Shown one piece after another: positions 1,773-40,323 of a DNA stretch of 64,000 nucleotides. The stretch is from contig JAGGZK010000042.1 in assembly GCA_021162065.1 (NCBI GenBank), forward strand, positions 506 to 64,505. The letters are read 5' to 3'. The notes below the pieces were generated by a model. The model was not told the DNA's origin, ran no database searches, and saw only the letters and a program-made list of their open reading frames with translations. This DNA is from Thermoplasmata archaeon. Its GTDB lineage: Archaea; Thermoplasmatota; E2; UBA202; JdFR-43. Position 1 is the first letter of the stretch. Each line of letters opens with the position of its first letter. The position numbers and the translations under genes are program-made.

Positions 1773-2762
1773 GTGAAATGTCATTGCGTTATAGTGACGA
1801 AGGAGAAAGCCGAGGAGGTGAGACGCAAACTTGTTGATGAGGATTTGCTGGTTATGGGCTTAAGAATAAAAAGAGATGAGAAAAACGTTTATTTTCCGGT
1901 TAAAAAAAAGGTGGATATGGATGGCTGTTTTTCCTCCATGGAGGATTTTGAGGAGATTGGCAAGAAAAGTTATCTCGATATCCTCAAAGCAGCTGGCATA
2001 AGGCCAGAATCTATCTCCATAGATTTCATCGGCTCCATAGCTCTCCTGAGAATGAAGGACGAGTCCGTTGCTATAAAGGTGGCGGAGGCCCTTCTGGAAA
2101 CCAACAGAAATGTGAGAACCGTATGTCTCGACGGGGGGGTGGAGGGCGACTACAGGGTGAGAAATGTGGAGGTAATAGCAGGTGAGAAAAAAACAGAGGC
2201 CATTCATAGAGAATACGGCCTGAGAATCAAACTGGACGTGGCAAAAACATACTTCTCGCCCCGCCTTGCCACAGAGCGAATAAGGGTGGCGAAGCAGGTG
2301 GCGGAGGGAAGCGTTGTTGTAGACATGTTTGCAGGAGTTGCCCCCTTTAGCCTTGTTATCGCCAAATATGCCCGGCCATCGAAAATCTATGCCATAGATG
2401 TGAATCCCTATGCTGTCAGATATGCAAGGGAGAATGTGATGCTGAATGGCATGGCAGGAATAATAGAGGTTATTGAGGGGGATGCAAAGTATGTGATAAA
2501 AAAGTTACCCCATGCCAATCACATAATAATGAATCTTCCCCATAGTAGTTTTCATTTTCTGCCGGATGCCATCGGAAAAGGGGACATAATCCACTATTAT
2601 GAGATAATGGAAAGGGGGAGGGAAAAGGAGAGAATTGATGAGATATGCGGAGTTGCCAGAGAGCATGGGTTTGAAATAGAGGTAAAAAATCTGAGAGTGG
2701 TTGGAAGTTATTCGCCCTCGAAACAGAAAATGGGAATGGAGCTATATGTGAAGCCCATCTAA
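1773..2762 (+). CDS. trm5: tRNA (guanine37-N1)-methyltransferase Trm5 / Taw2 family
   Basis: Strong similarity to M. jannaschii Trm5b: VVVDMFAGVAPFS, YAIDVNP, IIMNLP, IHYYEI. The track ORF begins at 1692 inside dph5. The alignment indicates a GTG start at 1773 (VKCHCVIVTKEKAEEVRRKL matches the Trm5 N-terminus), giving 329 aa. Confidence 0.8.
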   Translation: MKCHCVIVTKEKAEEVRRKLVDEDLLVMGLRIKRDEKNVYFPVKKKVDMDGCFSSMEDFEEIGKKSYLDILKAAGIRPESISIDFIGSIALLRMKDESVAIKVAEALLETNRNVRTVCLDGGVEGDYRVRNVEVIAGEKKTEAIHREYGLRIKLDVAKTYFSPRLATERIRVAKQVAEGSVVVDMFAGVAPFSLVIAKYARPSKIYAIDVNPYAVRYARENVMLNGMAGIIEVIEGDAKYVIKKLPHANHIIMNLPHSSFHFLPDAIGKGDIIHYYEIMERGREKERIDEICGVAREHGFEIEVKNLRVVGSYSPSKQKMGMELYVKPI

Positions 2763-3794
2763 GTTTTCCAGTGCCTCTGTAAGGAGTTTTATGCTCTCTT
2801 CCAGATCATTCATGCTTATCACCTCCACTCCGGAATGCATGTATCTTGTTGGAACACTTATCACTCCCGAAGGTATGCCCTCCCTCGTTATGTGGATCAC
2901 CGCAGCATCTGTCGTTCCTCCCTCCGAGACCTCCATCTGATATTTTATTTTCCTCTTCTTTGCCACATTTTCCAGCCATCTTACAACAGAAGGATGGGAA
3001 ATCAATCCTCTGCCCGACGCATCTGCTACTGTGATGACAGCCCCTTCATCCAGTTTTATCTGCGAATTCCTTTCCTCCACTCCGGGATGGTCGCCCGCCA
3101 CCGCCACCTCGCACACTATGGCAACATCGGGATTCAATGAGAAGGCAGATGTCCTTGCTCCCTTCAGACCAACTTCCTCCTGAACTGTGCCGACAGCATA
3201 TATGGTAGCATTTCCCCTGTATCTCTTCACTGCTTCAATCATCATGGTTATGCCCACTCTATCATCCAAGGATTTTCCAGTCACCCTGTTGTTCGCAAGC
3301 CTCCTTATATCCATATCCAGTGTTATTGGGGTGCCTACCTTTATTCCCTTCCTTTCCACCTCCTCCCTGCTTTTTGCCCCTATGTCGATGAACATGTCCT
3401 CTGCCTTTATGGCTGATTTTTTGCCATCATCCTTCATCATATGGGGTGGTTTGCTTCCTATGACTCCGTATATTTTTCCTTTTTCTCCGTGAAGAATGAC
3501 CCTGGAATTGAGAAGCGTTGGATCATACCATCCTCCGAATTTCACAAACCTTATGAATCCATTTTTGTCTATATTCTTCACCACAAGCCCTATTTCATCC
3601 ATGTGGGCCGCCAGCATCACCGAGGGCTTTTTCCCCTTTTTGATGGCAATCAGATTCCCCATGCTATCGGTGCGGAACTCGTCCACATGGTCCTCCAGTT
3701 CCTCCCTTATTATCTCCCTTATCTTCTCCTCATAACCAGACGTTCCATGAGCATTTGCAAGTTTTTTCAGAAGGGAATAGGTTGAGTGTGCCAT
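2742..3794 (-). CDS. M42 family metallo-aminopeptidase (TET / FrvX-like)
   Basis: 350 aa. The N-terminus LLKKLANAHGTSGYEEKIREII, AAHMDEIGL and the dinuclear-metal ligand pattern are typical of TET aminopeptidases. Confidence 0.8.
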   Translation of the reverse strand: MAHSTYSLLKKLANAHGTSGYEEKIREIIREELEDHVDEFRTDSMGNLIAIKKGKKPSVMLAAHMDEIGLVVKNIDKNGFIRFVKFGGWYDPTLLNSRVILHGEKGKIYGVIGSKPPHMMKDDGKKSAIKAEDMFIDIGAKSREEVERKGIKVGTPITLDMDIRRLANNRVTGKSLDDRVGITMMIEAVKRYRGNATIYAVGTVQEEVGLKGARTSAFSLNPDVAIVCEVAVAGDHPGVEERNSQIKLDEGAVITVADASGRGLISHPSVVRWLENVAKKRKIKYQMEVSEGGTTDAAVIHITREGIPSGVISVPTRYMHSGVEVISMNDLEESIKLLTEALENLDGLHI

Positions 3795-4329: not shown

Positions 4330-4594
4330 TTTTCCCTCTTTTTTATTTTTGTGATGATGGAAATGATGAATTTGAATTCCCAATCAACAATGAAAAATGA
4401 ATGAATTTAGGATTCTCCATTAAAATAAGACATCATAAAATCGAAATTTGTTTTCCAAAAAATGTGAGAATGATGTTGTAAATGCATTGGAAAATGAAAA
4501 TATTGAGGGTCCTTTGAAATTCAAACCTAAGAGAAGAAAACAACACCCCCAAAAAATCGACATCGTTGGTTGAAAAATAAGATAAGGCCAGTAG

Positions 4595-4668
4595 CGGGCT
4601 CGGGGGGATTCGAACCCCCGGCCAACAGGTTAAGAGCCTGTCGCTCTACCTAGCTGAGCTACGAGCCC
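4595..4668 (-). tRNA. tRNA-Lys (anticodon CUU)
   Basis: The reverse complement folds as a canonical cloverleaf: acceptor GGGCUCG/CGAGCCC, D-arm GCUC-AGCUAGGUA-GAGC, anticodon stem ACAGG/CCUGU with loop CUCUUAA (CUU), T-arm GGGGG-UUCGAAU-CCCCC. 74 nt, CCA not encoded. Confidence 0.85.
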
Positions 4669-8575: not shown

Positions 8576-9241
8576 ATGGCATACAGACTGGTGGCCTTTG
8601 ACATGGATGGCACTCTTCTGAAGGAAAGAACCATATTCCGTTTGGCGGAGGAGCGGGGTTTTGTTAACAAATTGAGGGAGATAATAGATGGGAAAAAATT
8701 CGGTTATGAGAAGACGATTGAAATCGCAAAATTTTTGAGGGGAATGGAAGTGGGGGAACTGCTGAAAATCTTCAGGGGGATACCTTTAAGGGAGAATGCC
8801 GATGAAGTGGTTAAGGAACTTAAGAAAAGAGATGTGATAACCGCTATAATAAGCAACAGTTATGACCTCGTTGTTAATGACCTCAAAAAAAGGTTGGGCA
8901 TGGATTATGCCTTTGCCAATACACTTGTGGTGGAAGATGGATTCATAACGGGGGAGGTGATTCCCCACAACAGAAATCTTGAGAAAAAATTCCCGGAATG
9001 CAGAATCCACTCCATATGCAAGAGAGATGTTTTCCTTTCCCTTTGCAGGGACATGGGTATTGACGCAAGAAATGCCATGGCTGTTGGGGATGGAGAGGTG
9101 GATATATGTATGCTCAGGGCAGCAGGGCTGGGGGTGGCGATAGGCGAAAATGAAAGGGTAAAAAGGGAGGCGAATGTTGTCATAGAAAATCTTATGGAAA
9201 TATTAAAATATGTGGATGGGGGTGAGGAGCATGGACATTAA
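8576..9241 (+). CDS. HAD-IB phosphoserine phosphatase (SerB)-like hydrolase
   Basis: FDMDGTLL motif I. LGMDYAFANTLVVEDGFITGEV and AVGDGEVDICMLRAAGLGVAIG closely parallel the M. jannaschii PSP (MJ1594). Start at the second Met. Confidence 0.75.
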   Translation: MAYRLVAFDMDGTLLKERTIFRLAEERGFVNKLREIIDGKKFGYEKTIEIAKFLRGMEVGELLKIFRGIPLRENADEVVKELKKRDVITAIISNSYDLVVNDLKKRLGMDYAFANTLVVEDGFITGEVIPHNRNLEKKFPECRIHSICKRDVFLSLCRDMGIDARNAMAVGDGEVDICMLRAAGLGVAIGENERVKREANVVIENLMEILKYVDGGEEHGH

Positions 9242-10430
9242 GCAGGAAGAGGTAACTACTCTCCATGAAATAAACATAAAAAGGGAAAATATCCTGAGCA
9301 AGGTGGAGGAGATATCGCAGGAAAGAAGGATATCCATCATAATGCCCATGCTTTACTCCGAATTGAAGAACGATGCCATAAAAAATATAATGAAGGGGCT
9401 GGGCAAGCTGAGATTTCACGGGGATATAATAATACCGCTATCGGCAAAAAATGAACATGAATTTGAGCATGTGAAGAAATTTTTTTCCGGCATGAAACAG
9501 GAGCATTACATAATATGGTGCAATGGCCCAAGGATAACAAGTTTTCTCGAGGATTTGAAGGAGGAAGGGATAAAGGCGATAAAGTATGAAGGTAAGGGAA
9601 GGGATGTGTGGATTGCCATGGGTGTGGCGACTCTCAACTCCTACGCCATAGCATTTCACGATGCGGATATAAGAACATACGACGAGATGATTCCCGCCAA
9701 ACTTCTCTTTCCCATACTCGAACCCAAACTGGATTTCAAATTCAGCAAGGGATATTATGCCAGAGTGAATCTGGAGACGGGAACCATATACGGGAGAGTT
9801 TTCCGCCTGTTTCTTCATCCTCTGCTCAAGGCTCTGGAGAATGAGATAGGTTATGAGCCCGATTTCCTGAATTTTCTGAGGGGCTTCAGGTATCCTCTGG
9901 CTGGGGAGTTTGCCATGACAAAGGATGTTGCCATAGACGTGGATATGCCGGGGGACTGGGGGATAGAGATAGGGGTGCTTGCCGAGATATACAGGAATGT
10001 GGCGAGAAAAAGAATCTGTCAGGTTGATCTCGGCATGTATGAGCACAAGCACCAGATTATGGGGGATAGAGAGAAGGGGCTCATAAGGATGGTGAGAGAT
10101 ATATTCAAAACCCTGCTGAGGGTACTGATTGAGGAGGACCACATCCAGGTATCGGAGGCGTTTCTTACCTCCCTGAGCGTCATATATCAGAGAGTTGCTC
10201 AGGACGCCATAAGGCAGTATCATGCAGACGCCATATTCAACTCCCTCAATTATGATAGGCATGAAGAGGAGAGCATGATGGAGAAGTTCAGCCGTCATAT
10301 TCTTGATGCGGGAATGGAATATCTGAGAAAGCCGATTGGCTCAAGGATACCGGATTGGCTGAGAACCATATCCGCAAAGAGAAAGGTGAGAGAGGAACTT
10401 TTTGAAATAGTGGTGGAAGAGAATGAGTGA
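9231..10430 (+). CDS. Retaining GT-A glycosyltransferase resembling mannosyl-3-phosphoglycerate synthase (MpgS, GT55-like)
   Basis: The motif order matches P. horikoshii MpgS: IMPMLYSE / GKGRDVWIAMGVA / FHDADIRTYDEMIP (DxD) / GEFAMTKDV...GWGIEIGVLAEI. Remembered alignment only. Confidence 0.5.
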   Translation: MDIKQEEVTTLHEINIKRENILSKVEEISQERRISIIMPMLYSELKNDAIKNIMKGLGKLRFHGDIIIPLSAKNEHEFEHVKKFFSGMKQEHYIIWCNGPRITSFLEDLKEEGIKAIKYEGKGRDVWIAMGVATLNSYAIAFHDADIRTYDEMIPAKLLFPILEPKLDFKFSKGYYARVNLETGTIYGRVFRLFLHPLLKALENEIGYEPDFLNFLRGFRYPLAGEFAMTKDVAIDVDMPGDWGIEIGVLAEIYRNVARKRICQVDLGMYEHKHQIMGDREKGLIRMVRDIFKTLLRVLIEEDHIQVSEAFLTSLSVIYQRVAQDAIRQYHADAIFNSLNYDRHEEESMMEKFSRHILDAGMEYLRKPIGSRIPDWLRTISAKRKVREELFEIVVEENE

Positions 10431-11701: not shown

Positions 11702-13693
11702 ATGAAGAAAATTTTAGTGTTTGGAATGATGTTGGTGTTTCTTATTGCTCTAAGAAGCAATGCCAACGGGGCACCGAGCACTGTATATGTTGATGATGAC
11801 TGGGCCGGGCTGCCAAACGGAACCGTGGTCAGCGGGCATATCATCGGCACCGATGCCTTTGCCTCCATCCAGGATGCGGTGAATGCTGTTGCAAGTGGAG
11901 GCACCGTATATGTCTGGAATGGAACATATAATGAGAATATAGACGTGACGAAGAGCGTTAGCATCATAGGCAATGAATCAGCAAGTTGTATAGTAAAGGC
12001 GGCGGATAATGCTGATTCTGTTTTTTGGGTGAATGCAGACCAGGTCACTATATCTGGACTTAATATCACAGGTGGAAGCAGAGGAGTTTTATTGCGTAGC
12101 GATACAGATTACTGCAACGTCTCCAATAACATCCTGTATAACAATGGATGGGGCATTGGAGTATTTGGTATAATTGGAGGAAGCACAACACTCTCTTACA
12201 TGGCCGATCATAATGTAATAATGAACAACACCATTTCACATAATGAGGAAGGAATATGGATGTATAAAGCCCAGTATAACAAGATAAAAGGAAACATAAT
12301 TTCATATAATACAAACAGGGGAATACACATGGATACCTACTCGAGATATAATTTGATAATCAATAATTACATCAGAAACAATCAATATGGAATCAGAATC
12401 GAAGATTCAACACCAACATCTATAGATAACCAGATATACAATAATTGTATTTATCACAATACTTATAACGCCAATGACACCTGCAGCAACATATGGAGTA
12501 TCTCAAAAACTGCAGGTCCCAATATAGTCGGTGGCCCATGGTTGGGCGGCAACTATTGGGGAGACTATGTGGGGACTGACGTCGATGGTGACGGAATAGG
12601 AGACACCCCATATACCATTCCCGATGGAGATAATCAAGATCAGTTCCCGTTAACAACTTCAATTTCCAATGTTAATAAGAACAAGTATTATCTCACGATA
12701 CAGGATGCAATAGATGATGCAAATGATGGCGAGATTGTTGTGGTTCATGACGGAGTTTACAGGGAAAATGTGAATATTGACAAAAGCATCACTCTGAAAA
12801 ATGGCTCAAAGCCGGTTATAGATGGAATGGGTGACATTGCAATAAATATCACCGCCAATAATGTGACCATAGAAGGATTTAACATAACCAACTCAAGTTG
12901 TGGTATAAAGTGCATCACCTCCGGCCTCCACATTCTCAACAATACACTCTACAACTGCAGTTATGGCATTGTTTTACTGCATTCCGACCACAATTACGTT
13001 TACAACAATAATATAAGTGGCGTGATTGCAGAGGATGCATGCGGCATTTATCTAGATTATGTGAACGATAGTACGTTCATAAACAACAGCATATTTGATT
13101 ACAGAATGGTTACAGGAAGCGCATGCGGCATCTATCTCGGATATTCCAGCAACAACACCTTTGATGGCGTATATATCCATAAACTGGATCTTGCAGTCCA
13201 GGTCGACTATGGAATATATATGAAAGAGGCAAATAATAATGCTCTTGAGGGCATCGAAATATGTGATTTGCATGGAGAATATGGATATGGAATCTATATC
13301 CAGAATTCGGATAACAATACCTTCAACGATTCGTATATTCATGACATAGATTCAACAGAGGGATATGCATTTTACTCCGACGAATGGGGCAGCAACAATT
13401 CTATATACAATATGACCGTCGCCAGTTATCTAACAACCATCTCCTTCACATACGGCAATGGAATCGCCCTGAATGGCGTGGACAATCCACATTCATCAAC
13501 TATGGCTTCTATACGCAAGTATGTGGAAATATATAACATGACCACAAACTCCTGGATAAATCTCACCATCAATTACACCGATGATGATGCTTACGGTGTA
13601 ACTGAGGAAACCATTGGCCTTTATCACTGGAACGAAACCACAGAAACATGGGAGGAAGTGGAGGCAAACCTGGACACAACCAGAACAGAATAA
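11702..13693 (+). CDS. Secreted right-handed parallel beta-helix repeat (NosD/pectate-lyase-like) protein
   Basis: Signal peptide MKKILVFGMMLVFLIALRSNANGAP. Many 20-25-aa repeats with N/G/I periodicity (NNTISHNEEGIWMY, NIISYNTNRGIHMD, IRNNQYGIRIED). 663 aa. Confidence 0.6.
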   Translation: MKKILVFGMMLVFLIALRSNANGAPSTVYVDDDWAGLPNGTVVSGHIIGTDAFASIQDAVNAVASGGTVYVWNGTYNENIDVTKSVSIIGNESASCIVKAADNADSVFWVNADQVTISGLNITGGSRGVLLRSDTDYCNVSNNILYNNGWGIGVFGIIGGSTTLSYMADHNVIMNNTISHNEEGIWMYKAQYNKIKGNIISYNTNRGIHMDTYSRYNLIINNYIRNNQYGIRIEDSTPTSIDNQIYNNCIYHNTYNANDTCSNIWSISKTAGPNIVGGPWLGGNYWGDYVGTDVDGDGIGDTPYTIPDGDNQDQFPLTTSISNVNKNKYYLTIQDAIDDANDGEIVVVHDGVYRENVNIDKSITLKNGSKPVIDGMGDIAINITANNVTIEGFNITNSSCGIKCITSGLHILNNTLYNCSYGIVLLHSDHNYVYNNNISGVIAEDACGIYLDYVNDSTFINNSIFDYRMVTGSACGIYLGYSSNNTFDGVYIHKLDLAVQVDYGIYMKEANNNALEGIEICDLHGEYGYGIYIQNSDNNTFNDSYIHDIDSTEGYAFYSDEWGSNNSIYNMTVASYLTTISFTYGNGIALNGVDNPHSSTMASIRKYVEIYNMTTNSWINLTINYTDDDAYGVTEETIGLYHWNETTETWEEVEANLDTTRTE

Positions 13694-14256
13694 ATGCAAA
13701 CCTCACATCCTTCAGCGAGTATGGAGTGTTTGCCACGGAAATGAATGTGAGCATCCATCTCTTCAATCCATGGAATCTGATAACGGTGCCGGTAAATGTC
13801 TCGCTTACTGCAAAATCTCTGGCGGAATTGATAGACGGATGCATGGTGATAACCCGATGGGATGCGGAAAAGCAGCGCTATTATGATTACATTGTCGGCA
13901 TAGATACCCCGGGCAACCCTGACTTTGATATAGAAGATGGCATTGCCTATTTTGTTGGTGTGAAATATCCCACATGGCTCAACATGACCGGGCAGCCCAT
14001 AGAGAACATAAGCATTGCATTGAAGCCGGGCTTAGATGCCATAGGATGGACCGATGCTGGCATAACAACGGCAGAAGATTTCGGAGGAAACATAGATAGC
14101 TGTGTTTACGTTGTCAAATGGAATGAGACATCGCAGGAATTTGAGACGCATATGGTTGGCACGGTGCCCAACAATAACTTTGCCATGGAGACAGGTAGGG
14201 GTGTATTCGTCTACATAGAGGGAAGCAGCGACGTGATGTGGTACGGCGGGAGATAA
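13648..14256 (+). CDS. Hypothetical protein, possibly the C-terminal domain of the preceding beta-helix protein separated by a frameshift
   Basis: Overlaps the 11702 ORF by 46 bp in another frame. It has no signal peptide but carries a WNETSQEFE motif that echoes WNETTETWEE at the end of the upstream ORF. Alternative start MNVS at 13741. Confidence 0.4.
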   Translation: MGGSGGKPGHNQNRINANLTSFSEYGVFATEMNVSIHLFNPWNLITVPVNVSLTAKSLAELIDGCMVITRWDAEKQRYYDYIVGIDTPGNPDFDIEDGIAYFVGVKYPTWLNMTGQPIENISIALKPGLDAIGWTDAGITTAEDFGGNIDSCVYVVKWNETSQEFETHMVGTVPNNNFAMETGRGVFVYIEGSSDVMWYGGR

Positions 14257-15068: not shown

Positions 15069-16217
15069 TTATGAACCCTGCTTTTCAGAACTCTCGCCCC
15101 GATATACAATTTTGAGGAGAGGGGGCGTAATGAGTGAAGAAACTATAACAAGAAGTATTGTGGATGCCAGCACCTGATGCGCCAGAGCATCGTTGAATAT
15201 TTTCATGGACATCTCTATGGTTACCACCACCAGCGCCACCTCCATACGGGGCATCATCCCTACTCCAACGGCAAGTGCATCTCTCGCCCTGAATCCACAG
15301 ACCTTTGCCCCAGCAGAGCATCCTATTATTTTTCCCATGAGGGCCATGGGTATGAATAGGAGGACGAGTTTGCCCATATCTCCAAGGGCGTTGAAATCGA
15401 AGGAGGCCCCCACCCATATGAAAAACAGGGGAATGAGAAAAACCTCTCCCATCTGTCGCATGAAGTCATCTATTCTCCTCCTCTGCGGCAAATTGCTGAA
15501 TATGAGCCCGGCAAAGAAGGCGCCCGTCACCGCCGCCAGTCCGAGGTCAACAGCCACAGCAGAGAAGATGAAGGCGAAGGCAATGGCGGCGGTGAGCATG
15601 AGGCGGGGTATTCCTATTTTTATCCCCCTCATTCTTCTTATTATAAGCACGGCCGCCATGAATATCAGGAAGAAGATGAAAATCTTGAATATGAGCATTG
15701 CTGGCTCTCCCTGTCCCAGCGTGATGGAAAGCACAACTATGCCGAGAACATCATCCAGCACCGCCACGGTGAGAATCAACTCCCCCACCTTGGAATGGAG
15801 GGCATGCATTTCCATTAAAGTGCGCACTGTAATGCCCACGCTGGTGGCCACCATTATGTTCCCTATGGCGATACTCGTCCTTATATCATAGCCTAGAATA
15901 TGTCCTGCTATCACTCCAAAGAGAAAGGCTATGCTTACGTCGAAAAGTGACGTGAGCAGCCCCTTTTTTCCGGCAGTCTTTATCTCATCCACTCCTATTT
16001 CCAAACCGGAGATGAAAAGGAGAAGAATTATGCCCATCTCTCCCAGTCCTTCTGTTACGGGAGATAGATACTTCATTCCGAAGAGTTTCCCTGCTATAAA
16101 GGGTCCCACCACTATACCTGTCAGAATTTCCCCTATCACGGCTGGCTGCTTCAGCTTCTCGAACGCGAAACCCAGTATCTTTGCCAGTAGTAGTGCTACA
16201 CCTATCTCCAGTAACAT
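15069..16217 (-). CDS. Monovalent cation:proton antiporter-2 (Kef/NapA-type) membrane protein
   Basis: MLLEIGVALLLAKILGFAFEKLKQPAVIGEILTGIVVGP N-terminus and about 12 TM helices. No fused RCK/TrkA domain. Confidence 0.8.
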   Translation of the reverse strand: MLLEIGVALLLAKILGFAFEKLKQPAVIGEILTGIVVGPFIAGKLFGMKYLSPVTEGLGEMGIILLLFISGLEIGVDEIKTAGKKGLLTSLFDVSIAFLFGVIAGHILGYDIRTSIAIGNIMVATSVGITVRTLMEMHALHSKVGELILTVAVLDDVLGIVVLSITLGQGEPAMLIFKIFIFFLIFMAAVLIIRRMRGIKIGIPRLMLTAAIAFAFIFSAVAVDLGLAAVTGAFFAGLIFSNLPQRRRIDDFMRQMGEVFLIPLFFIWVGASFDFNALGDMGKLVLLFIPMALMGKIIGCSAGAKVCGFRARDALAVGVGMMPRMEVALVVVTIEMSMKIFNDALAHQVLASTILLVIVSSLITPPLLKIVYRGESSEKQGS

Positions 16218-16693
16218 TATCTCTTCCCCAGCAGTATCTGAAGGATATAATGAACGGTGATTTCCCCCATTATTTCATCGTTTTCCACAACAGGGCAGCG
16301 TCTCACCCGGGCATTCACCATTCTCATGAGCACATTACCAATGGTTTCATCGGGGGAACAGGTGATGAGTTGCTTATGCATTATATCCGATGCCCTCCTG
16401 GCGGTGCCGTATTGGAGGGAGATGGAATATTTTTTTCCGAAAACGTATTTGGGCAGTCTGGTGGGGGATATGAGGCGGAGAATATCGCTTTCCGTTATTA
16501 TCCCGCAGAGCTTTTTTCCTCCTCTTTTTTCCACAACCCATACATGATCGCGGGATGTGAGAATGCTGAGAACTGTTTCGATATCCGCATCCTTTTCCAC
16601 CATGGGAAGGTTCCACATCTGCTTGTCATCAAGTATATCTCTCACCTTCTTTTCATGAAGCTCCTGGAGATTCACAATGTGATATCTTTTCAT
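16217..16693 (-). CDS. CBS domain pair protein
   Basis: Two CBS motifs (VRDIL...VVEKRGGKKLCGIITESDILR and ASDIMH...CPVVENDEIMGEITVHYIL). The stop abuts the start codon of the antiporter gene. Confidence 0.75.
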   Translation of the reverse strand: MKRYHIVNLQELHEKKVRDILDDKQMWNLPMVEKDADIETVLSILTSRDHVWVVEKRGGKKLCGIITESDILRLISPTRLPKYVFGKKYSISLQYGTARRASDIMHKQLITCSPDETIGNVLMRMVNARVRRCPVVENDEIMGEITVHYILQILLGKR

Positions 16694-16753
16694 GAGTTAA
16701 ATTTTTCTGTAAATTTATGAATACAAATTTAAATTCCCTCCCCTTTTCTTTTT

Positions 16754-18214
16754 ATGAAATTCGACCTGCGATGCAGCATTCAACTGAGCAGAGATGCTGA
16801 CGACATCAGAGAAGAATTCAGAAAATTTATGGGGGGTATCAAAATAGATGCGGAACTGGAATGGGAGATAAATGGCGATATGCTTCTATTGCATATTGTT
16901 TCCACAGATAGAAGGAGCCATGAATGGGCGCTCCGCCTTTATAAAAAACTCGCTCCCTTCTTCGGTAAAAACAAGATTGGGATGAGGGGCATACATGTGG
17001 ACAGATACGAGGTGGAGTTTGAACTGGAGAGGGAGGCAATCAAACCCGTTGCAATCCCCTTTGCCACTGTTGAAATCGATGGCAAAATGGCAAGAATTCT
17101 CATTGAGGATAAGGGCGAGGAGTTCATACGTCAGAATTATGTGGACAGGATGGTGAGGAGGATAAGGGAGAAGGTGGAGCATCAGTACTATGAGGGAAAG
17201 AAGGAATACTGGCATCTCATATGGCAAAGCGAGGAAAAGGAGGCAAAGTGGAATAAGGATCCATCTGAGGAACTGCAGAGAAGGGGATGGATCAAACTCA
17301 TGGGGAAGGGCAGATGGTTCTATTTTCCGCCCGCCGCCGCTATAATGAGGGCAATGGAAAGGATTGCCATAGAGAATGTGGTTAGGCCGCTGGGTTTTAA
17401 GGAAGTGATAGAGCCCATGCACGTTACCTTCGACACTTGGATAAAGACGGGGCATCTGGAGGGGATGCCCGGGGAGATTTACTACATATGTGAGCCTGAG
17501 AGCAGGGAAAGGGAAGAGTGGGAGCGCTTCGTGGATTTACTTAAGATAACCAGGAAGGTGGATGAGGAGGAGCTGCTGAAACACCTGAAGCCGCCCAGGG
17601 AAGGGGTGTGCTATGCCCAGTGTCCGAATATATATACTGCTCTTGCGGGAAAAACACTGGCGGAGAAAAATCTTCCCCTCCTAATATTTGACCGCTCTAC
17701 GCCTTCCGATAGATATGAGGCGGGAGGGAAGCATGGCATAGAGAGGGTGGATGAGTTTCACCGTATAGAGATTGTTTATATAGGCACGGAGGAGCAACTC
17801 AGGGAGATAAGGGAGGAATTGATGGAGAGATATTCCCATGTTTTCAATAAAATTCTGGACCTGGAATGGAGAATGGCCAGAGTGACGCCCTTCTACCTCC
17901 AGCAAGCGGGCATAGATGGGGAGGAGAAGGAGGAAATCAAGGGAACGATAGATTTCGAGGCATGGCTTCCGTATCGGGGAGATAGAAGCAAAGAGTGGCT
18001 GGAGATACAGAATGTTTCCATTGTTGGGGATAAATATACGAAGGCATTCAACATAAAGGGGCAGAAGAGCGAGTTATGGAGCGGATGCTCCGGCATAGGG
18101 CTGGAAAGATGGATGGTGGCCTTTCTTGCCCAAAAAGGAATGGAGCCCGATGAGTGGCCGGATGGCTTCAAAAAATACCTGCCGGAGTTGCCAGAAATGC
18201 CGGAATTCCTCTGA
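16754..18214 (+). CDS. serS: Methanogen-type (atypical, zinc-dependent) seryl-tRNA synthetase
   Basis: Close match to the Methanosarcina barkeri atypical SerRS throughout: MKF.L...I.LS N-terminus, VCYAQCP, VFDRS..S.RYE.GG.HGIERVDEFHRIEIV.IGT, FQNVSI.GDKY.K.FN.K, and the class II motif 3 WSGCSGIGLERW. Confidence 0.85.
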   Translation: MKFDLRCSIQLSRDADDIREEFRKFMGGIKIDAELEWEINGDMLLLHIVSTDRRSHEWALRLYKKLAPFFGKNKIGMRGIHVDRYEVEFELEREAIKPVAIPFATVEIDGKMARILIEDKGEEFIRQNYVDRMVRRIREKVEHQYYEGKKEYWHLIWQSEEKEAKWNKDPSEELQRRGWIKLMGKGRWFYFPPAAAIMRAMERIAIENVVRPLGFKEVIEPMHVTFDTWIKTGHLEGMPGEIYYICEPESREREEWERFVDLLKITRKVDEEELLKHLKPPREGVCYAQCPNIYTALAGKTLAEKNLPLLIFDRSTPSDRYEAGGKHGIERVDEFHRIEIVYIGTEEQLREIREELMERYSHVFNKILDLEWRMARVTPFYLQQAGIDGEEKEEIKGTIDFEAWLPYRGDRSKEWLEIQNVSIVGDKYTKAFNIKGQKSELWSGCSGIGLERWMVAFLAQKGMEPDEWPDGFKKYLPELPEMPEFL

Positions 18215-29756: not shown

Positions 29757-29843
29757 GCTGAGGTAGCCAAGCCCGGACCAAGGCGCAGGCCTTGAGAGCC
29801 TGTGGGGCTATGCCCCGCGAGGGTTCAAATCCCTCCCTCAGCG
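29757..29843 (+). tRNA. tRNA-Ser (anticodon UGA) with long variable arm
   Basis: Acceptor GCUGAGG/CCUCAGC, anticodon stem CAGGC/GCCUG with loop CUUGAGA (UGA), long extra arm UGGGGCUAUGCCCCGC, T-arm GAGGG-UUCAAAU-CCCUC, discriminator G. 87 nt. Confidence 0.85.
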
Positions 29844-32171: not shown

Positions 32172-32864
32172 TTAATAAACTTCCTTCATCGTTTCATGCA
32201 TGGCTATCTTTATGCCCTTCACCATTTCCTCCAACTCCATACCGTAACTCTTCTGGGATTTGAGGGGTGGAAGATGAATGAATCCAGCGGGGGTGCTTTT
32301 CCCATTCTCCTCCATGTAAAGAAGGGTGGAATAGAAGACATAGTTGCAGGAGTATGTTCCGGCAAAATAGGAAATCCTTGCATCCGTGCCGTTCTCTTCA
32401 ATACTTTCCACTATTTTTTCCACGGGCAGGGTGGAGAACATAAAAAGAGGAGCACCCCTCTCTATCCTCCTCCATCCAAGAAATTTATCTCCTAAATACA
32501 TGCTTTTTATGTTGAGGGCCACCTTCTCCACCTCAATTTTCCTCGCATATCCATCAAGCCCCATGCATATCACCGCCACCGGCTCGTATTTTTCGATGGC
32601 CTTCCTTATCTTTTCTGCCGATTGGTTAAAGTCAACCGGAAGGATAATCGCCATTACCATTGCACCATCCACCGTGCTTCCATTCATCTCCTCCACCACC
32701 ATCTCGGATGGATTTACGGCATAGCCATCAAATGGCCCAAACCCGGTAAGGAGGATGTAGTTACTGCTATTGCTGCCACCATGCGAGAAAGCAGGCACAG
32801 GGGCTGCGATTATGAGAAGGGATAGAATCAGAGCATATTTCATAAACAAAAAACGTTTTTTCAT
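32172..32864 (-). CDS. pcp: Pyroglutamyl-peptidase I (pyrrolidone-carboxylate peptidase, C15) with an N-terminal signal-peptide-like segment
   Basis: ILLTGFGPFDGYAVNPS, KIEVEKVALN (Glu), AGTYSCNYVFY (Cys) and GFIHLPP (His) match the Pcp catalytic triad context. The N-terminus MKKRFLFMKYALILSLLIIAAPVPAFS is hydrophobic. The track ORF extends 100 codons further upstream, which I rejected. Confidence 0.8.
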   Translation of the reverse strand: MKKRFLFMKYALILSLLIIAAPVPAFSHGGSNSSNYILLTGFGPFDGYAVNPSEMVVEEMNGSTVDGAMVMAIILPVDFNQSAEKIRKAIEKYEPVAVICMGLDGYARKIEVEKVALNIKSMYLGDKFLGWRRIERGAPLFMFSTLPVEKIVESIEENGTDARISYFAGTYSCNYVFYSTLLYMEENGKSTPAGFIHLPPLKSQKSYGMELEEMVKGIKIAMHETMKEVY

Positions 32865-32930
32865 ATAAGAATTTGCCCGATGAAGACACTTTCCAAAAAC
32901 TTTAATATCCTTCCCATCTTTTCTGCTTGG

Positions 32931-34646
32931 ATGTATATAAGGCAGCCCATAGTGGCAGTGCTGGGCCACGTCGATCACGGCAAGACAACGTTGCTGGACT
33001 ACATTAGGGGCTCCTGCGTGGCGGAGAGGGAAGCGGGGGCAATAACCCAGCATATAGGGGCGACGGAGGTGCCTGTCGAAACTATATACCACATATGCGG
33101 GAATCTGCTCAAAAATAAAAAGTTCAAAATCCCCGGGCTGCTTTTCATCGACACCCCGGGCCATTTCGCCTTCACCACCCTGAGGGCAAGAGGGGGGGCG
33201 CTGGCTGACCTGGCCATTCTGATAGTGGATATCAATGAGGGGATGATGCAGCAGACGGAGGAGTCCATTGAAATTCTCAAAAAATACCGCACCCCCTTTG
33301 TTGTCGCTGCCAACAAGATAGACGCCATAACCGGATGGAGGAGGGTTGATGGCATCATAAGCCAGCGGCTGGCCAGGCAGAATGAAAGGGTTCAGAGGGA
33401 GTTTGATGAGAAGTTTTACAAACTCGTTGGCAACCTTTATGAGAGGGGCTTTTCAGCCGACAGATATGACAGGATAAAGGATTTCACCAAAAATGTTGCC
33501 ATTGTCCCCATTTCCGCCAAGACAGGTGAGGGGGTGCCGGAACTTCTGATGATTCTCATAGGGCTTGCTCAGCGATTTCTGGAGCATCAGCTCATGACGG
33601 AGGAGAGTGAGGCGGAGGGCACGGTGCTGGAGGTGAAGGAGGAGAAGGGCCTTGGCACCACCATAGATGCGATAATCTACAATGGAATAATAAGGGAGGG
33701 GGACAAAATAGTGATAGGGGGGAGGAGAGAGCCTTTCGTAACCAACATAAGGGCGCTCCTGAAGCCAAAGCCCTTAGATGAGATAAGGGATCCATCAGAC
33801 CGTTTCATGAATGTTAAGGAGGCGCATGCCGCCTGCGGGATAAAGATAGCAGCTCCCAATCTGGAAAATACCTTTGCTGGCGCTCCTCTCAAGGTGGTGA
33901 AAAATCTGGAGGAGGACATAAAGAAGATAAACAGGGAGATGAGCATAGACATAAAGGGGGAGGATGAGGGAATAATACTGAAGGCGGATGCCATCGGCTC
34001 CATAGAGGCGTTGTATTACATGCTGAAGGAAAAGGGCATCCCGGTGAGAAAGGCGGAGGTGGGAGATATATCAAAGAGGGACATAGTGGAGGCGCAAACC
34101 AATGCCGACCCGCTCAACCGTCTCGTTCTGGGTTTCAATGTGAAGATATTGCCGGAGGTGGAGGATACGGGAGAGGTGGCTATTATAACCGATAAGATAA
34201 TATATCATCTTCTGGAGGAACTGGATGAATGGAGGGAGAGGAGGAAAAAGGAACTGGAGGAGGAGAAGAGAAAGGAAATCACCCATCCGGGAATGATTCT
34301 TTTCCTGCCCGATTTTACCTTCAGAGTAAGCAAACCCGCCATTGTGGGGGTGAGGGTGCTGGCTGGTGAGATAAGGCCGGGGCAGAAGCTTATAAGGGAC
34401 GATGGCAAGCCGGTTGGCAAGATAAAGAGCATACAGGCGGAGAAGCATACAATTCAGAAGGCAATACAGGGAATGGAGGTGGCGGTTGCCATAGAAGGGG
34501 CTACGGTGGGAAGACAGATAAAACCGGGCCAGATTATGCTGGTGGACATAAGCCAGAGCGAAATCCAGAAATTGCTGGACATGGATTTGAGCCCGGATGA
34601 AATGGATATTCTAAACAAACTCATCAGGATAAAGAGAGAGAAATGA
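32931..34646 (+). CDS. infB: Translation initiation factor aIF5B (IF2 homologue)
   Basis: RQPIVAVLGHVDHGKTTLLDYIRGS, DTPGH, NKID GTPase motifs and the C-terminal beta-barrel domains. No intein-sized insertion. Confidence 0.9.
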   Translation: MYIRQPIVAVLGHVDHGKTTLLDYIRGSCVAEREAGAITQHIGATEVPVETIYHICGNLLKNKKFKIPGLLFIDTPGHFAFTTLRARGGALADLAILIVDINEGMMQQTEESIEILKKYRTPFVVAANKIDAITGWRRVDGIISQRLARQNERVQREFDEKFYKLVGNLYERGFSADRYDRIKDFTKNVAIVPISAKTGEGVPELLMILIGLAQRFLEHQLMTEESEAEGTVLEVKEEKGLGTTIDAIIYNGIIREGDKIVIGGRREPFVTNIRALLKPKPLDEIRDPSDRFMNVKEAHAACGIKIAAPNLENTFAGAPLKVVKNLEEDIKKINREMSIDIKGEDEGIILKADAIGSIEALYYMLKEKGIPVRKAEVGDISKRDIVEAQTNADPLNRLVLGFNVKILPEVEDTGEVAIITDKIIYHLLEELDEWRERRKKELEEEKRKEITHPGMILFLPDFTFRVSKPAIVGVRVLAGEIRPGQKLIRDDGKPVGKIKSIQAEKHTIQKAIQGMEVAVAIEGATVGRQIKPGQIMLVDISQSEIQKLLDMDLSPDEMDILNKLIRIKREK

Positions 34647-36511
34647 ATCTCTTCCCCTACAAACCCAGGAGGAATCAGGAGAAAATTGTGAGGGTTATAG
34701 AGGATGCGCTAAGGGATGGAAAGCATCTCATTCTTGAAGCACCTGCTGGCTCAGGAAAAACAATATGTTCCCTCGCCGCCGCCCTTTCCTTTGCTAAGGA
34801 AAATGGAATGGGCATTGTTTATCTCACCCGCACCAACTCCCAGCAGAAACAGGCAATAAAGGAGCTCAAAGAGATGAACGTTGAGGGGATAAGGGCGGTG
34901 AGCATTCAGGGGAGGGCAAACATGTGTCTTCTGATGGAGGAAATTCCCTCGCTCCAGGAAAAATACGCGGGCAATGAGGAGGTGGCAAGATTATGCAGGG
35001 CGAGGAAAAAGAAGAGCATGGAGGCGCTGAGAGGGGAGAAGGTGGAGAACAGATGCCCCTTCTTCGAGAATTTCATCCTTACCCGGGATGATTTGAAGTT
35101 TGACAGGGTGGTTGCGGCTGAGGAACTTATGGAATACGGGAGAAAATATCGCATATGCGCATATGAAGTCAATAAAATGCTCGCCAGGAAGGCAGACATA
35201 ATAATAGCACCCTACATATATATATTCGATGAGTTTTTGCGGGAATCCTTCATCTCAAATTTTGGATATGCCCTGGAGAACAGCATACTGATAGTGGATG
35301 AAGCCCACAACCTGCCGGACTTCTGCCGCGAGTTGCTCTCCTTTTCCCTTTCATTGAATACCGTAAAGGGAGCGCTGAAGGAAGTAGAGGATTACGGAAT
35401 TAATGACTCGCAACTCCTCCATCTGATGGAGGCACTGGAGAGAATCCTGGAGAGAATGAAAAATGATATTCAGTTTTCGGAGACCAGCGATGCCCTTCTT
35501 CCGGAAAATAAACTCACGGAGGAGATGAAAAGGGAAGGGGTGGACGTGGCGAAGTTGAAGGACATGGGGGAAAGGATGGTGACATATGGTGACATAATAG
35601 CAGACATAAAGGAAAGCAGAAACATGATACCCCGCTCATTTGTGAGAAGCGTGGGCAATTTCCTTCTCAGATGGATTGAGATGAACGAAAAATGGGTGAA
35701 GATTGTGGAAAAAAATGAGGATAGTATAAAAATAGAGGGCTACTGTTTAGATGCTTCCCTCGCCTCATCCATCATAAACTCCTTTTACGCCAGCATCCAT
35801 ATGTCAGGAACGCTTCAGCCCATGGATGAATACAGGGACAGCATGGGTATCGATGCCTCCATGGCCACATTTCCCTCCCCCTTTCCGGAGAAGAACAGAA
35901 AGATAATCTACGTCAATGGGGTGAGCACCCGCTACTACATGGACGATGCCATGGTGGAAAAAATAGTCCGAGGACTGGAAAAAATATTCTCCACCATAGA
36001 GCGCAACACCCTCGTTCTTTTCCCCTCCTACTCAGTCCTTGGCAGATTTCTGGAGAAAATTAATGTTAAAAGAGGACTATACATGGAGGAGAGGGGGGAG
36101 AGGCAGGAGAGCATAATGGGAAAGCTCAGTGAATTCAAGGAAAAGGGCGGCATATTCCTCTCAGTTATGGGGGGAAGACTGGCGGAGGGCATTGACTTCC
36201 CCTCGGAGGAACTGGAGATGGTGATAATAGTGGGCATTCCATATCCTCCGCCGTCGGCAAAACAGGGTGCTCTCCAGGCGTACTACGATGCCAAATATGG
36301 TGATGGATGGAAATATGTGATGGAGGCCAGCGCCATAAGGAAGATGATGCAGGCCATAGGCCGCCTGATAAGGAGTGAAAATGACAGGGGGGTGGCGATA
36401 ATATTTGACGAGAGGGCAAAAAGATTCAGAAAATACATGAAGATGGAGCAGGCAGGGAATGCCGAGGAGGCGGCGGAAATGGCAAGAAGATTTTTTTCCC
36501 GGAGCGGCTAA
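34643..36511 (+). CDS. xpd: XPD/Rad3-family 5'-3' DNA helicase (FeS-cluster helicase)
   Basis: EAPAGSGKT Walker A, VDEAHNL DEAH box. Four Cys (NMCLL, RLCRAR, NRCPFF, ICAYE) form the FeS domain. 4-bp overlap with infB. Confidence 0.8.
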   Translation: MNLFPYKPRRNQEKIVRVIEDALRDGKHLILEAPAGSGKTICSLAAALSFAKENGMGIVYLTRTNSQQKQAIKELKEMNVEGIRAVSIQGRANMCLLMEEIPSLQEKYAGNEEVARLCRARKKKSMEALRGEKVENRCPFFENFILTRDDLKFDRVVAAEELMEYGRKYRICAYEVNKMLARKADIIIAPYIYIFDEFLRESFISNFGYALENSILIVDEAHNLPDFCRELLSFSLSLNTVKGALKEVEDYGINDSQLLHLMEALERILERMKNDIQFSETSDALLPENKLTEEMKREGVDVAKLKDMGERMVTYGDIIADIKESRNMIPRSFVRSVGNFLLRWIEMNEKWVKIVEKNEDSIKIEGYCLDASLASSIINSFYASIHMSGTLQPMDEYRDSMGIDASMATFPSPFPEKNRKIIYVNGVSTRYYMDDAMVEKIVRGLEKIFSTIERNTLVLFPSYSVLGRFLEKINVKRGLYMEERGERQESIMGKLSEFKEKGGIFLSVMGGRLAEGIDFPSEELEMVIIVGIPYPPPSAKQGALQAYYDAKYGDGWKYVMEASAIRKMMQAIGRLIRSENDRGVAIIFDERAKRFRKYMKMEQAGNAEEAAEMARRFFSRSG

Positions 36512-37377
36512 GGAGTCAAAATCTCGCACCCATCTTGCTTCACATACAGTGTATGCTCCGCCTGCGAAACAATGCCACCCTTCACCTCCACAAGTTTGAA
36601 GTATGGGGCGATGAGGCGGCGCTTCATCAAAAATGCGATTTTGAGAGGAGTTTTCTCCCCGTATATATCATAGAGCCATCTCTCAGCAAAGGGCAGCCCA
36701 TGGAATCTTTTCTTTATCTCCCTCACCATTGGGGAGTTGCTGCTCAGACGGTATATGTTCCCTATTCCCTCATCCACCACTATGCCGTCTCCGTTGGTCA
36801 CGAAGGGCTCTATGGCTATCACCTCCCCCTCCTTCAACCTCCTTCCCATTTTCCTGTAATAGTTGGGAATGGATATGCCCGCATGGAGATTATATCTCTC
36901 CAGAGAGTGACCCTGAAGATTTTTTACGGGAACAAATCCTTGCTCTATTATCTTCTCCTCTATGGCTCTGCTTATCTCCTCTATCTTCACCCCGGCTTTT
37001 ACCACTCTAATTGCCTCATGGAGGGCCATCTTTGCGGTTTCTATCAAATCAGCATATAGGGATGTGCCCACCTCCACGGTGGCGGCGGTGTCGCCTATGT
37101 AGCCATCGACATGTGCCCCCACATCGATTTTCACCACATCCCCTCTTTTGAAAACCTTTTCATCGTGCTTTGAGGGGGTGTAATGGGCGGCTGTGCTGTT
37201 GACGGATATGTTCACAGGGAATGCCAGCTCCGCCCTCTGGAGTATGTAATCCTCAATATACTCAGCCACCTCGAGATAGCTTCTCCCCTCCTTTACATAT
37301 GCTATGCCTTTCCTTCTTGCCTCTCCGGCAATCTTTCCCGCCTCCTTGTAGAGGTCATAATCTTCCATATATCTCAT
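36508..37377 (-). CDS. map: Methionine aminopeptidase type 2 (archaeal)
   Basis: Pita-bread fold motifs: KIDVGAHVDGYIGDTA, HGISIPNY-like HAG, EPF. Confidence 0.85.
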   Translation of the reverse strand: MRYMEDYDLYKEAGKIAGEARRKGIAYVKEGRSYLEVAEYIEDYILQRAELAFPVNISVNSTAAHYTPSKHDEKVFKRGDVVKIDVGAHVDGYIGDTAATVEVGTSLYADLIETAKMALHEAIRVVKAGVKIEEISRAIEEKIIEQGFVPVKNLQGHSLERYNLHAGISIPNYYRKMGRRLKEGEVIAIEPFVTNGDGIVVDEGIGNIYRLSSNSPMVREIKKRFHGLPFAERWLYDIYGEKTPLKIAFLMKRRLIAPYFKLVEVKGGIVSQAEHTLYVKQDGCEILTP

Positions 37378-39744: not shown

Positions 39745-40323
39745 ATGATTGAGGAAGGGACAACGGTGCTTCCAGGAGATAAGGTGGCGGTAAGCGAGGA
39801 ACTGAAGGCAGGGAAGAGCACCTATGAGGAAAACGGCGAGATAATAGCTGCTGTGGTGGGAAAATTCAGGGTGAACAGAGAGGAGATGTCGGCGGAGGTG
39901 GAGCCCCTTTCATCCACTCCCCTTCTGCTCCATATCGGTGACACCGCCATAGGGGAGGTGAAACAGGTGACGGAGGCCATGGTCATCCTCAAAATAATTC
40001 ACATAGCGGGTAAGCACAGGCAGGTGGCGGGGGAGAGGGATGCCGCCATCCATATATCCAATGTGAGCGATGAGTTTGTGGAAAGCCTGAAGGGAAAATA
40101 CAGGATAGGGGATATTTTGAGAGGAAAAATCATAAGGGTGGAGCCGGCCATCCAGATGTCCACAAGGGGGAAGGAGTTTGGGGTCATCAAGGCGTACTGC
40201 ACCAATTGCAGAAGCCCCCTTGTAAAAAAAGGGGAAATTCTGGAATGTCCCTCCTGCGGGAGGGTGGAGGAGAGAAAAATTGCGGATGATTATGGAGCAG
40301 GAGATCTTGACAGGGTGATATGA
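39745..40323 (+). CDS. csl4: Exosome complex RNA-binding subunit Csl4
   Basis: N-terminal domain, central S1 domain, and C-terminal zinc ribbon CTNC...CPSC. Confidence 0.7.
   Translation: MIEEGTTVLPGDKVAVSEELKAGKSTYEENGEIIAAVVGKFRVNREEMSAEVEPLSSTPLLLHIGDTAIGEVKQVTEAMVILKIIHIAGKHRQVAGERDAAIHISNVSDEFVESLKGKYRIGDILRGKIIRVEPAIQMSTRGKEFGVIKAYCTNCRSPLVKKGEILECPSCGRVEERKIADDYGAGDLDRVI

Follow-up and report, generated by a model that had tools for sequence, protein, structure and literature searches.

The gene serS, at positions 16754..18214 (+) of the window (the 64-kb stretch of DNA analysed here), encodes a type-2 (methanogen-type, zinc-dependent) seryl-tRNA synthetase (SerRS) of 486 aa. Reading frame, Pfam, NCBIfam, PDB match and fold all confirm a genuine, full-length member of this enzyme type, and the type is settled. 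We propose, with a probability of about 0.82, that an uncultured Thermoplasmatota archaeon, not a methanogen and related to JdFR-43/Thermoprofundales, uses it as its working SerRS, that it has a long history of vertical inheritance, and that its clade is a sister group of the Methanosarcinales/ANME enzymes and not an offshoot of them.

The reading frame is intact and occupies exactly these positions, from an ATG start to a TGA stop. Its product is 100% identical to MCD6481351.1, a protein from a 'Thermoplasmata archaeon' MAG that NCBI names serine--tRNA ligase; as a housekeeping gene serS is unremarkable and of a familiar kind, and public annotation of it is already present. An A/T-rich, TATA-like box, AATTTAAATT, can be read at 16726..16735 (+), 19-28 nt 5' of the ATG, and suggests that the transcript may be leaderless or carry a short leader. 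The gene is under strong purifying selection (dN/dS ~0.05), with values of 0.059 and 0.048 for its two nearest orthologues, the only ones used since dS is saturated beyond them. Its GC content resembles that of the surrounding DNA.

Profile searches recover both domains of the enzyme. PF18490 (tRNA_bind_4) covers residues 1-143 (E 5e-21, 75.7 bits against a cutoff of 25) and tRNA-synt_2b (PF00587) covers residues 289-460. The top NCBIfam model is the type-2 serine--tRNA ligase NF002120 (E 3e-143, 478 bits). By sequence, the closest solved structure is the SerRS of M. barkeri (2cim, E 2.5e-126, query residues 35-485), followed by that of M. kandleri (3w3s, E 6.8e-69). Although the Pfam cutoffs are passed, the NCBIfam equivalog cutoffs are missed, as NF002120 demands 611 bits and TIGR00415 (serS_MJ) returns 273.2 bits against 489.55. 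Since both scores fall below the equivalog level, the window SerRS is a divergent branch of the type-2 family, and its clade probably lies outside the diversity used to set the curated thresholds. Some members of this clade are named only 'aminoacyl--tRNA ligase-related protein'. The canonical serS model TIGR00414 matches in the core only, at 31.6 bits against a cutoff of 301.65.

The predicted fold agrees with this assignment along the whole length. The AlphaFold model (pLDDT 80.5) aligns with 2cja, 2cim and 3w3s at TM 0.74-0.78 over ~500 columns, as against 0.44-0.50 for canonical SerRS and ~0.45 for amino acid:carrier-protein ligases (Foldseek TMq 0.43). A canonical SerRS is ruled out by the TIGR00414 score, by these TM values and by the missing coiled-coil N-terminal arm. 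The N-terminal tRNA-binding domain (residues 1-143, 16754..17182 (+)), defined by Pfam, model and alignment, is modelled as β-sheet plus helices, its blocks mostly above 90 in pLDDT. Aligned to relatives of ~500 aa, it has lost ~11 residues from the stretch that joins the first helix to the following strand. The class II catalytic core spans approximately residues 170-486 (17262..18211 (+)), as placed by the tRNA-synt_2b match, the 2cim alignment and the motifs. Between motifs 1 and 2 the core carries an insertion, modelled as helices 253-266 and 271-277. Motif 2 (R337, E339; fHRIE) and motif 3 (G444-C-S-G-I-G-L-E-R452) are intact and invariant in 119 aligned sequences (118 homologues and the query). 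Low model confidence is found in the active-site loops 283-286, 316-333 and 384-392.

The predicted zinc ligands are Cys290 (codon 17621..17623 (+)), Glu339, which is also the motif-2 glutamate (17768..17770 (+)), and Cys445 inside motif 3 (18086..18088 (+)), each invariant in 119/119 sequences. A tag-corrected alignment puts them exactly on the Cys/Glu/Cys triad of M. barkeri SerRS, which we take to be Cys306, Glu355 and Cys461, in agreement with the tag-corrected PDB numbering. Across a family-wide alignment of 45 sequences, ~30 of them full-length clusters, the triad is kept in all but one, P0324, which has Gln for Glu. In the N-terminal domain, Arg61, Lys64 and Arg78 correspond to M. barkeri Arg76, Lys79 and Arg94, basic residues needed for serylation of tRNA-Ser. 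Arg78 is invariant; positions 61 and 64 vary within the window's clade (Q/R/N and K/N). The earlier note on this DNA had called a rare methanogen-type SerRS over its whole length, with an idiosyncratic N-terminal tRNA-binding domain and a zinc-site region, and had set it apart from the canonical form. All of this is borne out: NF002120, 2cim and the fold support the first point, PF18490 the second, the invariant triad the third, and the TIGR00414 and TM values the last.

The presumed substrate lies in the same window. A tRNA-Ser(UGA) at 29757..29843 (+), supported by ARAGORN, by the Rfam tRNA model (56.8 bits) and by its sequence and fold, has G1:C72, G73 and G30:C40 together with a long extra arm whose foot has unpaired bases. 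It thereby carries all four identity elements reported for the methanogenic-type enzyme, namely G73, G1:C72, G30:C40 and the long extra arm (PMC9976931). Judging from its M. barkeri homologue, the protein would work as a class II synthetase in which Cys290, Glu339 and Cys445 would hold a zinc ion. Serine would coordinate this zinc through its amino group in place of a water, and threonine would be sterically disfavoured; this follows the type-2 mechanism summarised in PMC7373986. Serine would be activated with ATP through Arg337 of motif 2 and Arg452 of motif 3. tRNA-Ser would be held by its long extra arm in the globular N-terminal domain, Arg61, Lys64 and Arg78 included, with the acceptor end (G1:C72, G73) reaching into the active site. 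For the window enzyme, we infer zinc binding, catalysis and a dimeric state.

Comparison with known systems sharpens the assignment. The M. barkeri structures (2cim, 2cj9, 2cja and 2cjb) reportedly come from Bilokapic et al. 2006. That enzyme and ours have the same two-domain architecture, align over their full length, and have in common motifs 2 and 3, the zinc triad and the equivalents of Arg76, Lys79 and Arg94; no gaps interrupt the 2cim alignment at the insertion between motifs 1 and 2, and the folds agree at TM 0.74-0.77. They differ in length (502 against 486 aa), ours having ~11 residues deleted after the first helix of the N-terminal domain, and are only ~44% identical overall. The M. 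barkeri protein belongs to a separate clade and a methanogen host, whereas the window host is not a methanogen. M. kandleri SerRS, solved in complex with tRNA-Sec (3w3s), has the same fold (TM 0.78) and the same zinc ligands, and its N-terminal domain binds the extra arm and outer corner of the tRNA. At ~30% identity (Foldseek) it is more distant, and it stands for the branch of Class I methanogens (TIGR00415), across the family tree from the window enzyme. Canonical SerRS (TIGR00414; T. thermophilus 1sry) shares the class IIa core and presumably the same reaction, and it likewise relies on the long extra arm and G73 of tRNA-Ser (PMC7373986, PMC9976931). It has a coiled-coil arm and no active-site zinc, whereas the window SerRS lacks such an arm and matches it in the core only. 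The carrier-protein ligases (Bll0957/Atu2573, NF005479) descend from type-2 SerRS in their catalytic core, which is homologous to that of the window protein; their substrates are carrier proteins, and the N-terminal tRNA-binding domain, complete in the window protein, is missing from them.

The gene sits in a housekeeping and translation block in which a CBS gene, serS, eIF-1A, Rio1 and KH/Dim2 are followed by FtsZ, PyrBI, EF-1alpha and the tRNA-Ser. The block is syntenic in relatives with at least 75% identity, and across relatives the identity of SerRS tracks that of its syntenic neighbours. Below ~75% identity synteny is not conserved, and it is therefore uninformative on deeper inheritance. 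Pfam and precomputed annotation of the ORFs of at least 120 aa in the 64-kb window, including every ORF of at least 400 aa, gave no second serS or other aminoacyl-tRNA synthetase, as the earlier note had said of serS, and no mcr or other methanogenesis gene. The window does hold many peptidases, including a C25 gingipain-like one.

Orthologues are present in at least 31 Thermoplasmatota species representatives, all uncultured and sampled from vent or hydrothermal and subsurface sites; the nearest are Auka, Guaymas, JdFR-43 and HyVt MAGs. Each species sampled in the clade has kept the enzyme, and identities within the clade run from 55 to 89%, a spread similar to that seen across all of the Methanosarcinales clade. 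In trees built by neighbour joining from Kimura-corrected distances with 100 bootstraps (not maximum likelihood), the Thermoplasmatota and Altiarchaeota enzymes form a deep clade of their own (bootstrap 100). This clade is sister to, and not nested in, a clade of Methanosarcinales, ANME and Syntropharchaeia enzymes, also with bootstrap 100. Monophyly of the Thermoplasmatota sequences has only 61-66% support. The nearest named cluster outside Thermoplasmatota and Altiarchaeota is that of Methanofastidiosa. Besides the Altiarchaeota, type-2 clusters also come from MAGs labelled Aenigmarchaeota, Bathyarchaeota, Caldarchaeales and Thermoproteota. Public sequences comprise ~30 full-length clusters at 50% identity, of which all except one have the zinc triad and many come from non-methanogens, so the methanogen-only distribution of textbooks does not hold. 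A literature search returned no papers on SerRS in Altiarchaeota or using the phrase 'methanogen-type SerRS'.

The earlier note had taken the enzyme as a strong phylogenetic marker and concluded that the organism is a methanogen, a close relative of one, or a lateral recipient of the gene. As type-2 SerRS occurs in non-methanogens, including this Thermoplasmatota host and the other lineages named above, the strong marker falls away. A host that is a methanogen or a close relative would fit the origin of the best characterised homologues in methanogens, the position of Methanofastidiosa as nearest named cluster, and the presence within Thermoplasmatota of the methanogenic Methanomassiliicoccales. 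We nevertheless regard such a host as very unlikely. According to PMC4427996, the Methanomassiliicoccales rely instead on a common SerRS of bacterial type, and the JdFR-43/Thermoprofundales (MBG-D) lineage is described in the literature as peptide users. The host is a peptide-degrading Thermoplasmatota archaeon and not a methanogen, because the identical sequence is that of a 'Thermoplasmata archaeon' MAG, the at least 31 closest species are all uncultured Thermoplasmatota, and the window is rich in peptidases yet without methanogenesis genes among its annotated ORFs. There is similarly little chance that serS was gained recently from a methanogen, for example a member of the Methanosarcinales. 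Transfer has been proposed by Fournier et al. (PMC4427996), and M. barkeri is the top PDB match; against this stand the sister position of the clade, its internal diversity, the synteny and the unremarkable GC content. Judged from the sequences, serS is not a recent import from methanogens, because it falls in a separate deep clade with full bootstrap support and its divergence matches that of its syntenic neighbours. An ancient transfer into the Thermoplasmatota lineage, of the kind envisaged by Fournier et al. 2015 (PMC4427996), may have occurred.

The gene could also be an auxiliary paralogue beside a canonical serS elsewhere in the genome, used perhaps under certain conditions or for particular tRNAs. 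Both SerRS types are reported in M. barkeri (PMC9976931), the common archaeal type is found in Thermoplasmatales proper (PMC4427996), and the genome was examined over 64 kb only. We consider an auxiliary role unlikely, given the retention of serS in every sampled species of the clade under a dN/dS of ~0.05, its core translation neighbourhood, its intact catalytic and tRNA-binding residues and the single serS among the annotated ORFs of the window, although none of these points is decisive. On the preferred reading of a working housekeeping enzyme, we infer that the cell has no other SerRS. An amino acid:[carrier-protein] ligase, a truncated type-2 SerRS homologue that loads carrier proteins and not tRNA, would account for the weak core similarity to Bll0957-type ligases (NF005479 at 55.6 bits; structure 3mey at E 5e-4; the TMq given above). 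Such ligases are ~300-350 aa long and consist of the catalytic domain only, whereas the window protein has 486 aa and includes the entire N-terminal tRNA-binding domain, modelled with confidence and retaining its key basic residues. The NF005479 score is far under its cutoff of 357, and neighbourhood annotation gave no carrier-protein gene adjacent to serS. Domain content and scores effectively refute this identity, and the best matches are to the methanogen type (478 bits) and to neither the canonical SerRS nor the ligases.

Reviews up to 2023 still call type-2 SerRS specific to methanogenic archaea (including PMC7373986 and PMC9976931). The restriction to methanogens is a property of the name and not of the enzyme, and SerRS type cannot serve to call an organism a methanogen. 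Curated annotation thresholds are affected too, as some type-2 enzymes are currently labelled 'aminoacyl--tRNA ligase-related' or 'hypothetical'. The wide distribution also bears on the hypothesis that the rare SerRS entered a methanogen ancestor from a pre-LUCA lineage, with occasional secondary transfers (Fournier et al. 2015, PMC4427996). A broader reading, which we offer tentatively and hold to be possible although doubtful, is that type-2 SerRS may be no methanogen speciality. It may instead be a broadly distributed archaeal form (Thermoplasmatota/Thermoprofundales, Altiarchaeota, Methanofastidiosa, Aenigmarchaeota, Bathyarchaeia, Caldarchaeales and other Thermoproteota) of early archaeal origin, later replaced repeatedly by the common type and possibly the sole SerRS in the window's non-methanogen lineage. 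Because the type-2 tree is deep and structured by lineage, such an early origin would be more consistent with it than the alternative proposed in 2015, a single import into a methanogen ancestor with occasional secondary transfers.

The serS gene at 16754-18214 (+ strand; 486 codons, ATG start, TGA stop) encodes a type-2 seryl-tRNA synthetase (SerRS), the zinc-dependent form known from methanogens. The earlier note had proposed this identity, and profiles, PDB sequences and fold all bear it out. The top NCBIfam model is NF002120, type-2 serine--tRNA ligase (E 3e-143), followed by TIGR00415 (serS_MJ); the protein misses the equivalog cutoffs of both (478 vs 611 bits and 273 vs 489.55 bits). The N-terminal tRNA-binding domain of atypical SerRS, also recognised in the note, is matched by Pfam tRNA_bind_4 (PF18490; residues 1-143, E 5e-21) and the class II core by tRNA-synt_2b (residues 289-460). 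Among all PDB sequences the best match is M. barkeri SerRS (2cim; E 2.5e-126, query 35-485), then M. kandleri SerRS (3w3s; E 6.8e-69); the remaining matches have E of at least 5e-4. Identity to the Methanosarcina enzyme is about 44%. An AlphaFold2 model from a 42-sequence alignment has a mean pLDDT of 80.5, with N-terminal domain blocks mostly above 90 and three active-site loops poorly predicted. It aligns with the M. barkeri and M. kandleri structures over about 500 columns (TM 0.74-0.78; Foldseek E 1e-49 to 3e-39). In contrast, canonical SerRS structures superpose on the catalytic core alone (TM about 0.42-0.50) and the canonical model TIGR00414 scores 31.6 bits, which sets the protein apart from the coiled-coil-arm form. 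Identity as an amino acid:[carrier-protein] ligase was rejected on similar grounds: the corresponding NCBIfam model scores 55.6 bits and Bll0957 structures align with the catalytic core alone (TM about 0.42-0.50).

Once the 20-residue tag of the 2cim chain is corrected for, Cys290, Glu339 and Cys445 align to M. barkeri Cys306, Glu355 and Cys461, which we take to be the zinc ligands, reportedly described by Bilokapic and co-workers in 2006. This triad, motif-2 Arg337 and motif-3 G444..R452 are invariant across 119 aligned sequences (118 homologues and the query). In a family-wide alignment of 45 sequences, including about 30 full-length 50%-identity cluster representatives, 44 carry the triad; the exception, representative P0324, has Gln for Glu. 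P0324 and P0320 are divergent, shorter clusters (442-463 aa) that group with bootstrap 100 and could be paralogues with changed function. Across the insertion that separates motifs 1 and 2, the alignment with M. barkeri is gap-free. The sole visible structural difference is a deletion of ~11 residues in the window's subclade, after the first helix of the N-domain and before the next strand, and this accounts for the length of 486 rather than about 500 residues. Arg61, Lys64 and Arg78 (the last invariant) are the counterparts of M. barkeri Arg76, Lys79 and Arg94, N-domain residues with a pronounced effect on tRNA serylation (Jaric et al. 2009, cited in PMC4666401).

A tRNA-Ser(UGA) gene (29757-29843) lies ~11.5 kb downstream of the end of serS. 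Its G1:C72 and G30:C40 pairs, its discriminator G73 and its long extra arm, the foot of which holds unpaired bases, correspond to the identity set reported for the M. barkeri methanogenic-type enzyme (Korencic et al. 2004, summarised in PMC9976931). The annotated window ORFs of at least 120 aa, which include all those of 400 aa or more, contain no second aminoacyl-tRNA synthetase, as the note had observed for serS; coexistence of a canonical serS elsewhere in the genome, as reported for M. barkeri, seems improbable.

The serS start is sound, since the ATG at 16754 is the earliest start codon in frame and all close homologues (484-486 aa) share the MKFDL N-terminus. A TATA-like A/T-rich element, AATTTAAATT, lies ~19-28 nt upstream of the ATG and would suit an archaeal promoter whose transcript has at most a very short leader. 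The divergent CBS-domain gene (16217-16693, -) is separated from serS by an A/T-rich spacer of only 60 bp (16694-16753), in which the promoters of both must sit.

Elsewhere in the window, an archaeal RNase P RNA (43365-43653, +) matches Rfam model RF00373 over its full length with 190 bits; it lies between the ribose-5-phosphate isomerase gene and a small ORF and is usable as an independent lineage marker. A tRNA-Lys(CUU) lies at 4594-4668 (-). ORFs of 406 aa (9210-10430, +) and 202 aa (13648-14256, +) lack Pfam matches even at E 0.1; the latter is a gene call in public assemblies and has a 34% match in a relative's locus (L015). The 591-aa ORF at 39910-41685 (-) is almost certainly a shadow ORF, having no Pfam match and overlapping, on the opposite strand, the well-supported TruD gene (40594-41859, +) and an exosome Csl4/ECR1_N-like gene (39745-40323, +). 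The mechanical ORFs for a C15 peptidase (32172-33164, -) and aIF5B (IF-2/EF-Tu domains; 32880-34646, +) overlap by ~285 nt on opposite strands; as residues before 137 lie outside the C15 domain, translation of the peptidase probably starts at an internal Met.

The note had taken the enzyme to mean that the host is a methanogen, a close relative of one or a recipient of the gene by lateral transfer. The evidence points elsewhere. The SerRS is identical to MCD6481351.1, "MAG: serine--tRNA ligase [Thermoplasmata archaeon]", which sits on a 70.5 kb contig, and is also encoded on contigs of a JGI metagenome and of ENA samples labelled SPET22-1. Scanning GTDB with a single genome for each species gave 36 serS loci: 31 in MAGs labelled Thermoplasmatota, Thermoplasmata or Thermoplasmatales, among them Auka (AUK), Guaymas (B78_G9), Juan de Fuca (JdFR-43) and HyVt isolates, one labelled just "archaeon" and four in Altiarchaeota. 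Identity is about 60-89% for the Thermoplasmatota-labelled loci and 51-53% for the Altiarchaeota. Among its annotated ORFs the 64-kb window has no mcr or other methanogenesis gene. The window encodes M42, C15 pyroglutamyl, M24, M28 and PDZ-containing M50 peptidases, a TldD/PmbA pair, a C25 (gingipain-like) peptidase with propeptide and a beta-lactamase-fold hydrolase, with peptidase-type genes at 2742-3794 (-), 32172-33164 (-), 36508-37377 (-), 46370-49002 (-), 49063-51036 (+), 53849-55201 (-), 56726-58201 (+) and 62131-63348 (-), a number unusually high for 64 kb. Large surface or adhesion proteins are probably encoded at 58188-62099 (-; 1303 aa, with repeats of CARDB, DUF11 and Ig-like domains) and at 44429-46369 (+; 646 aa, with VWA7-Ig, NPCBM-associated and CARDB domains). 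Given the Thermoplasmatota relatives, the lack of mcr in the window and its peptidases, the host is therefore a Thermoplasmatota heterotroph and not a methanogen. The 75% SerRS identity and synteny shared with L009, a relative's locus, suggest that it may belong to or stand near the JdFR-43 family. Within Thermoprofundales (the former MBG-D), JdFR-43 corresponds to the thermophilic subgroup B (PMC9585477), and proteins and peptides are believed to be its food (PMC10811742); the peptidase richness fits the protein-degrading lifestyle described for Thermoprofundales (PMC9585477).

A recent import from a methanogen is likewise contradicted. The gene sits in a core housekeeping neighbourhood, with phosphopantothenoylcysteine synthetase, a Na+/H+ antiporter and the CBS protein on one side and eIF-1A, Rio1 kinase and a KH (Dim2/Pno1-like) protein on the other, followed by FtsZ, beta-CASP nuclease, PyrI/PyrB and EF-1alpha. 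Its GC content equals that of its surroundings. Synteny from PPS_PS through Na/H, CBS, serS, eIF-1A, Rio1 and KH to FG-GAP and transglutaminase is kept down to about 75% identity, and SerRS identity tracks that of the neighbours (88% vs 77-98% in L001; 75% vs 70-77% in L005, L007 and L009), which argues for vertical inheritance of serS within the lineage. That serS is in use is indicated by strong purifying selection: against the two closest orthologues, dN/dS is 0.059 (L001, 89% identity) and 0.048 (L002, 84% identity), with dS saturated beyond these. In a tree built by neighbour joining from Kimura distances (484 columns, 100 bootstraps, M. kandleri as root), whose named sequences from the M. 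barkeri query covered Methanosarcinales, ANME-2, Methanoperedens, Methanothrix and Syntropharchaeia, Methanosarcinales group with Syntropharchaeia (bootstrap 100). The sister clade, also with bootstrap 100, unites Thermoplasmatota and Altiarchaeota, with Thermoplasmatota monophyletic at 66%. The window SerRS thus lies outside the methanogen sequences, which speaks decisively against its recent acquisition from a methanogen. Ancient transfer into the host lineage, at its base, is conceivable and was proposed by Fournier et al. in 2015 (PMC4427996). According to the same paper, Thermoplasmatales proper have the common archaeal SerRS and Methanomassiliicoccales a bacterial-type one.

When 1.84 billion cluster representatives were scanned exhaustively with HMMER, 58 matched at E <= 1e-30, and there were about 30 full-length clusters. 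Taken as deposited MAG labels, possible contamination included, clusters belong to Methanofastidiosa (P0280), which a distance-based tree places as sister to the Thermoplasmatota and Altiarchaeota clade (bootstrap 92), to a second Altiarchaeota type (P0285), Thermoproteota (P0291), Aenigmarchaeota (P0295), Caldarchaeales (P0304) and Bathyarchaeota (P0308). Six homologues (P0014, P0047, P0285, P0455, P0483 and P0484) are named 'aminoacyl--tRNA ligase-related protein' or 'hypothetical protein', probably because, like the window SerRS, they fall below the NCBIfam equivalog cutoffs. With the enzyme in a Thermoplasmatota host and in other MAGs not labelled as methanogens, its standing as the strong phylogenetic marker that the note had supposed is not supported. 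Recent reviews still call it methanogen-specific (PMC7373986, PMC4666401, PMC9976931), and its occurrence near Thermoplasmatales was noted already in 2015. By its sequence the window SerRS is a further member of a known enzyme kind, already named serine--tRNA ligase in GenBank, and the wider point is limited to how far the type-2 family reaches past methanogens. The picture is coherent all the same: the "methanogen-type" name reflects the place of first discovery rather than the actual range of the enzyme.
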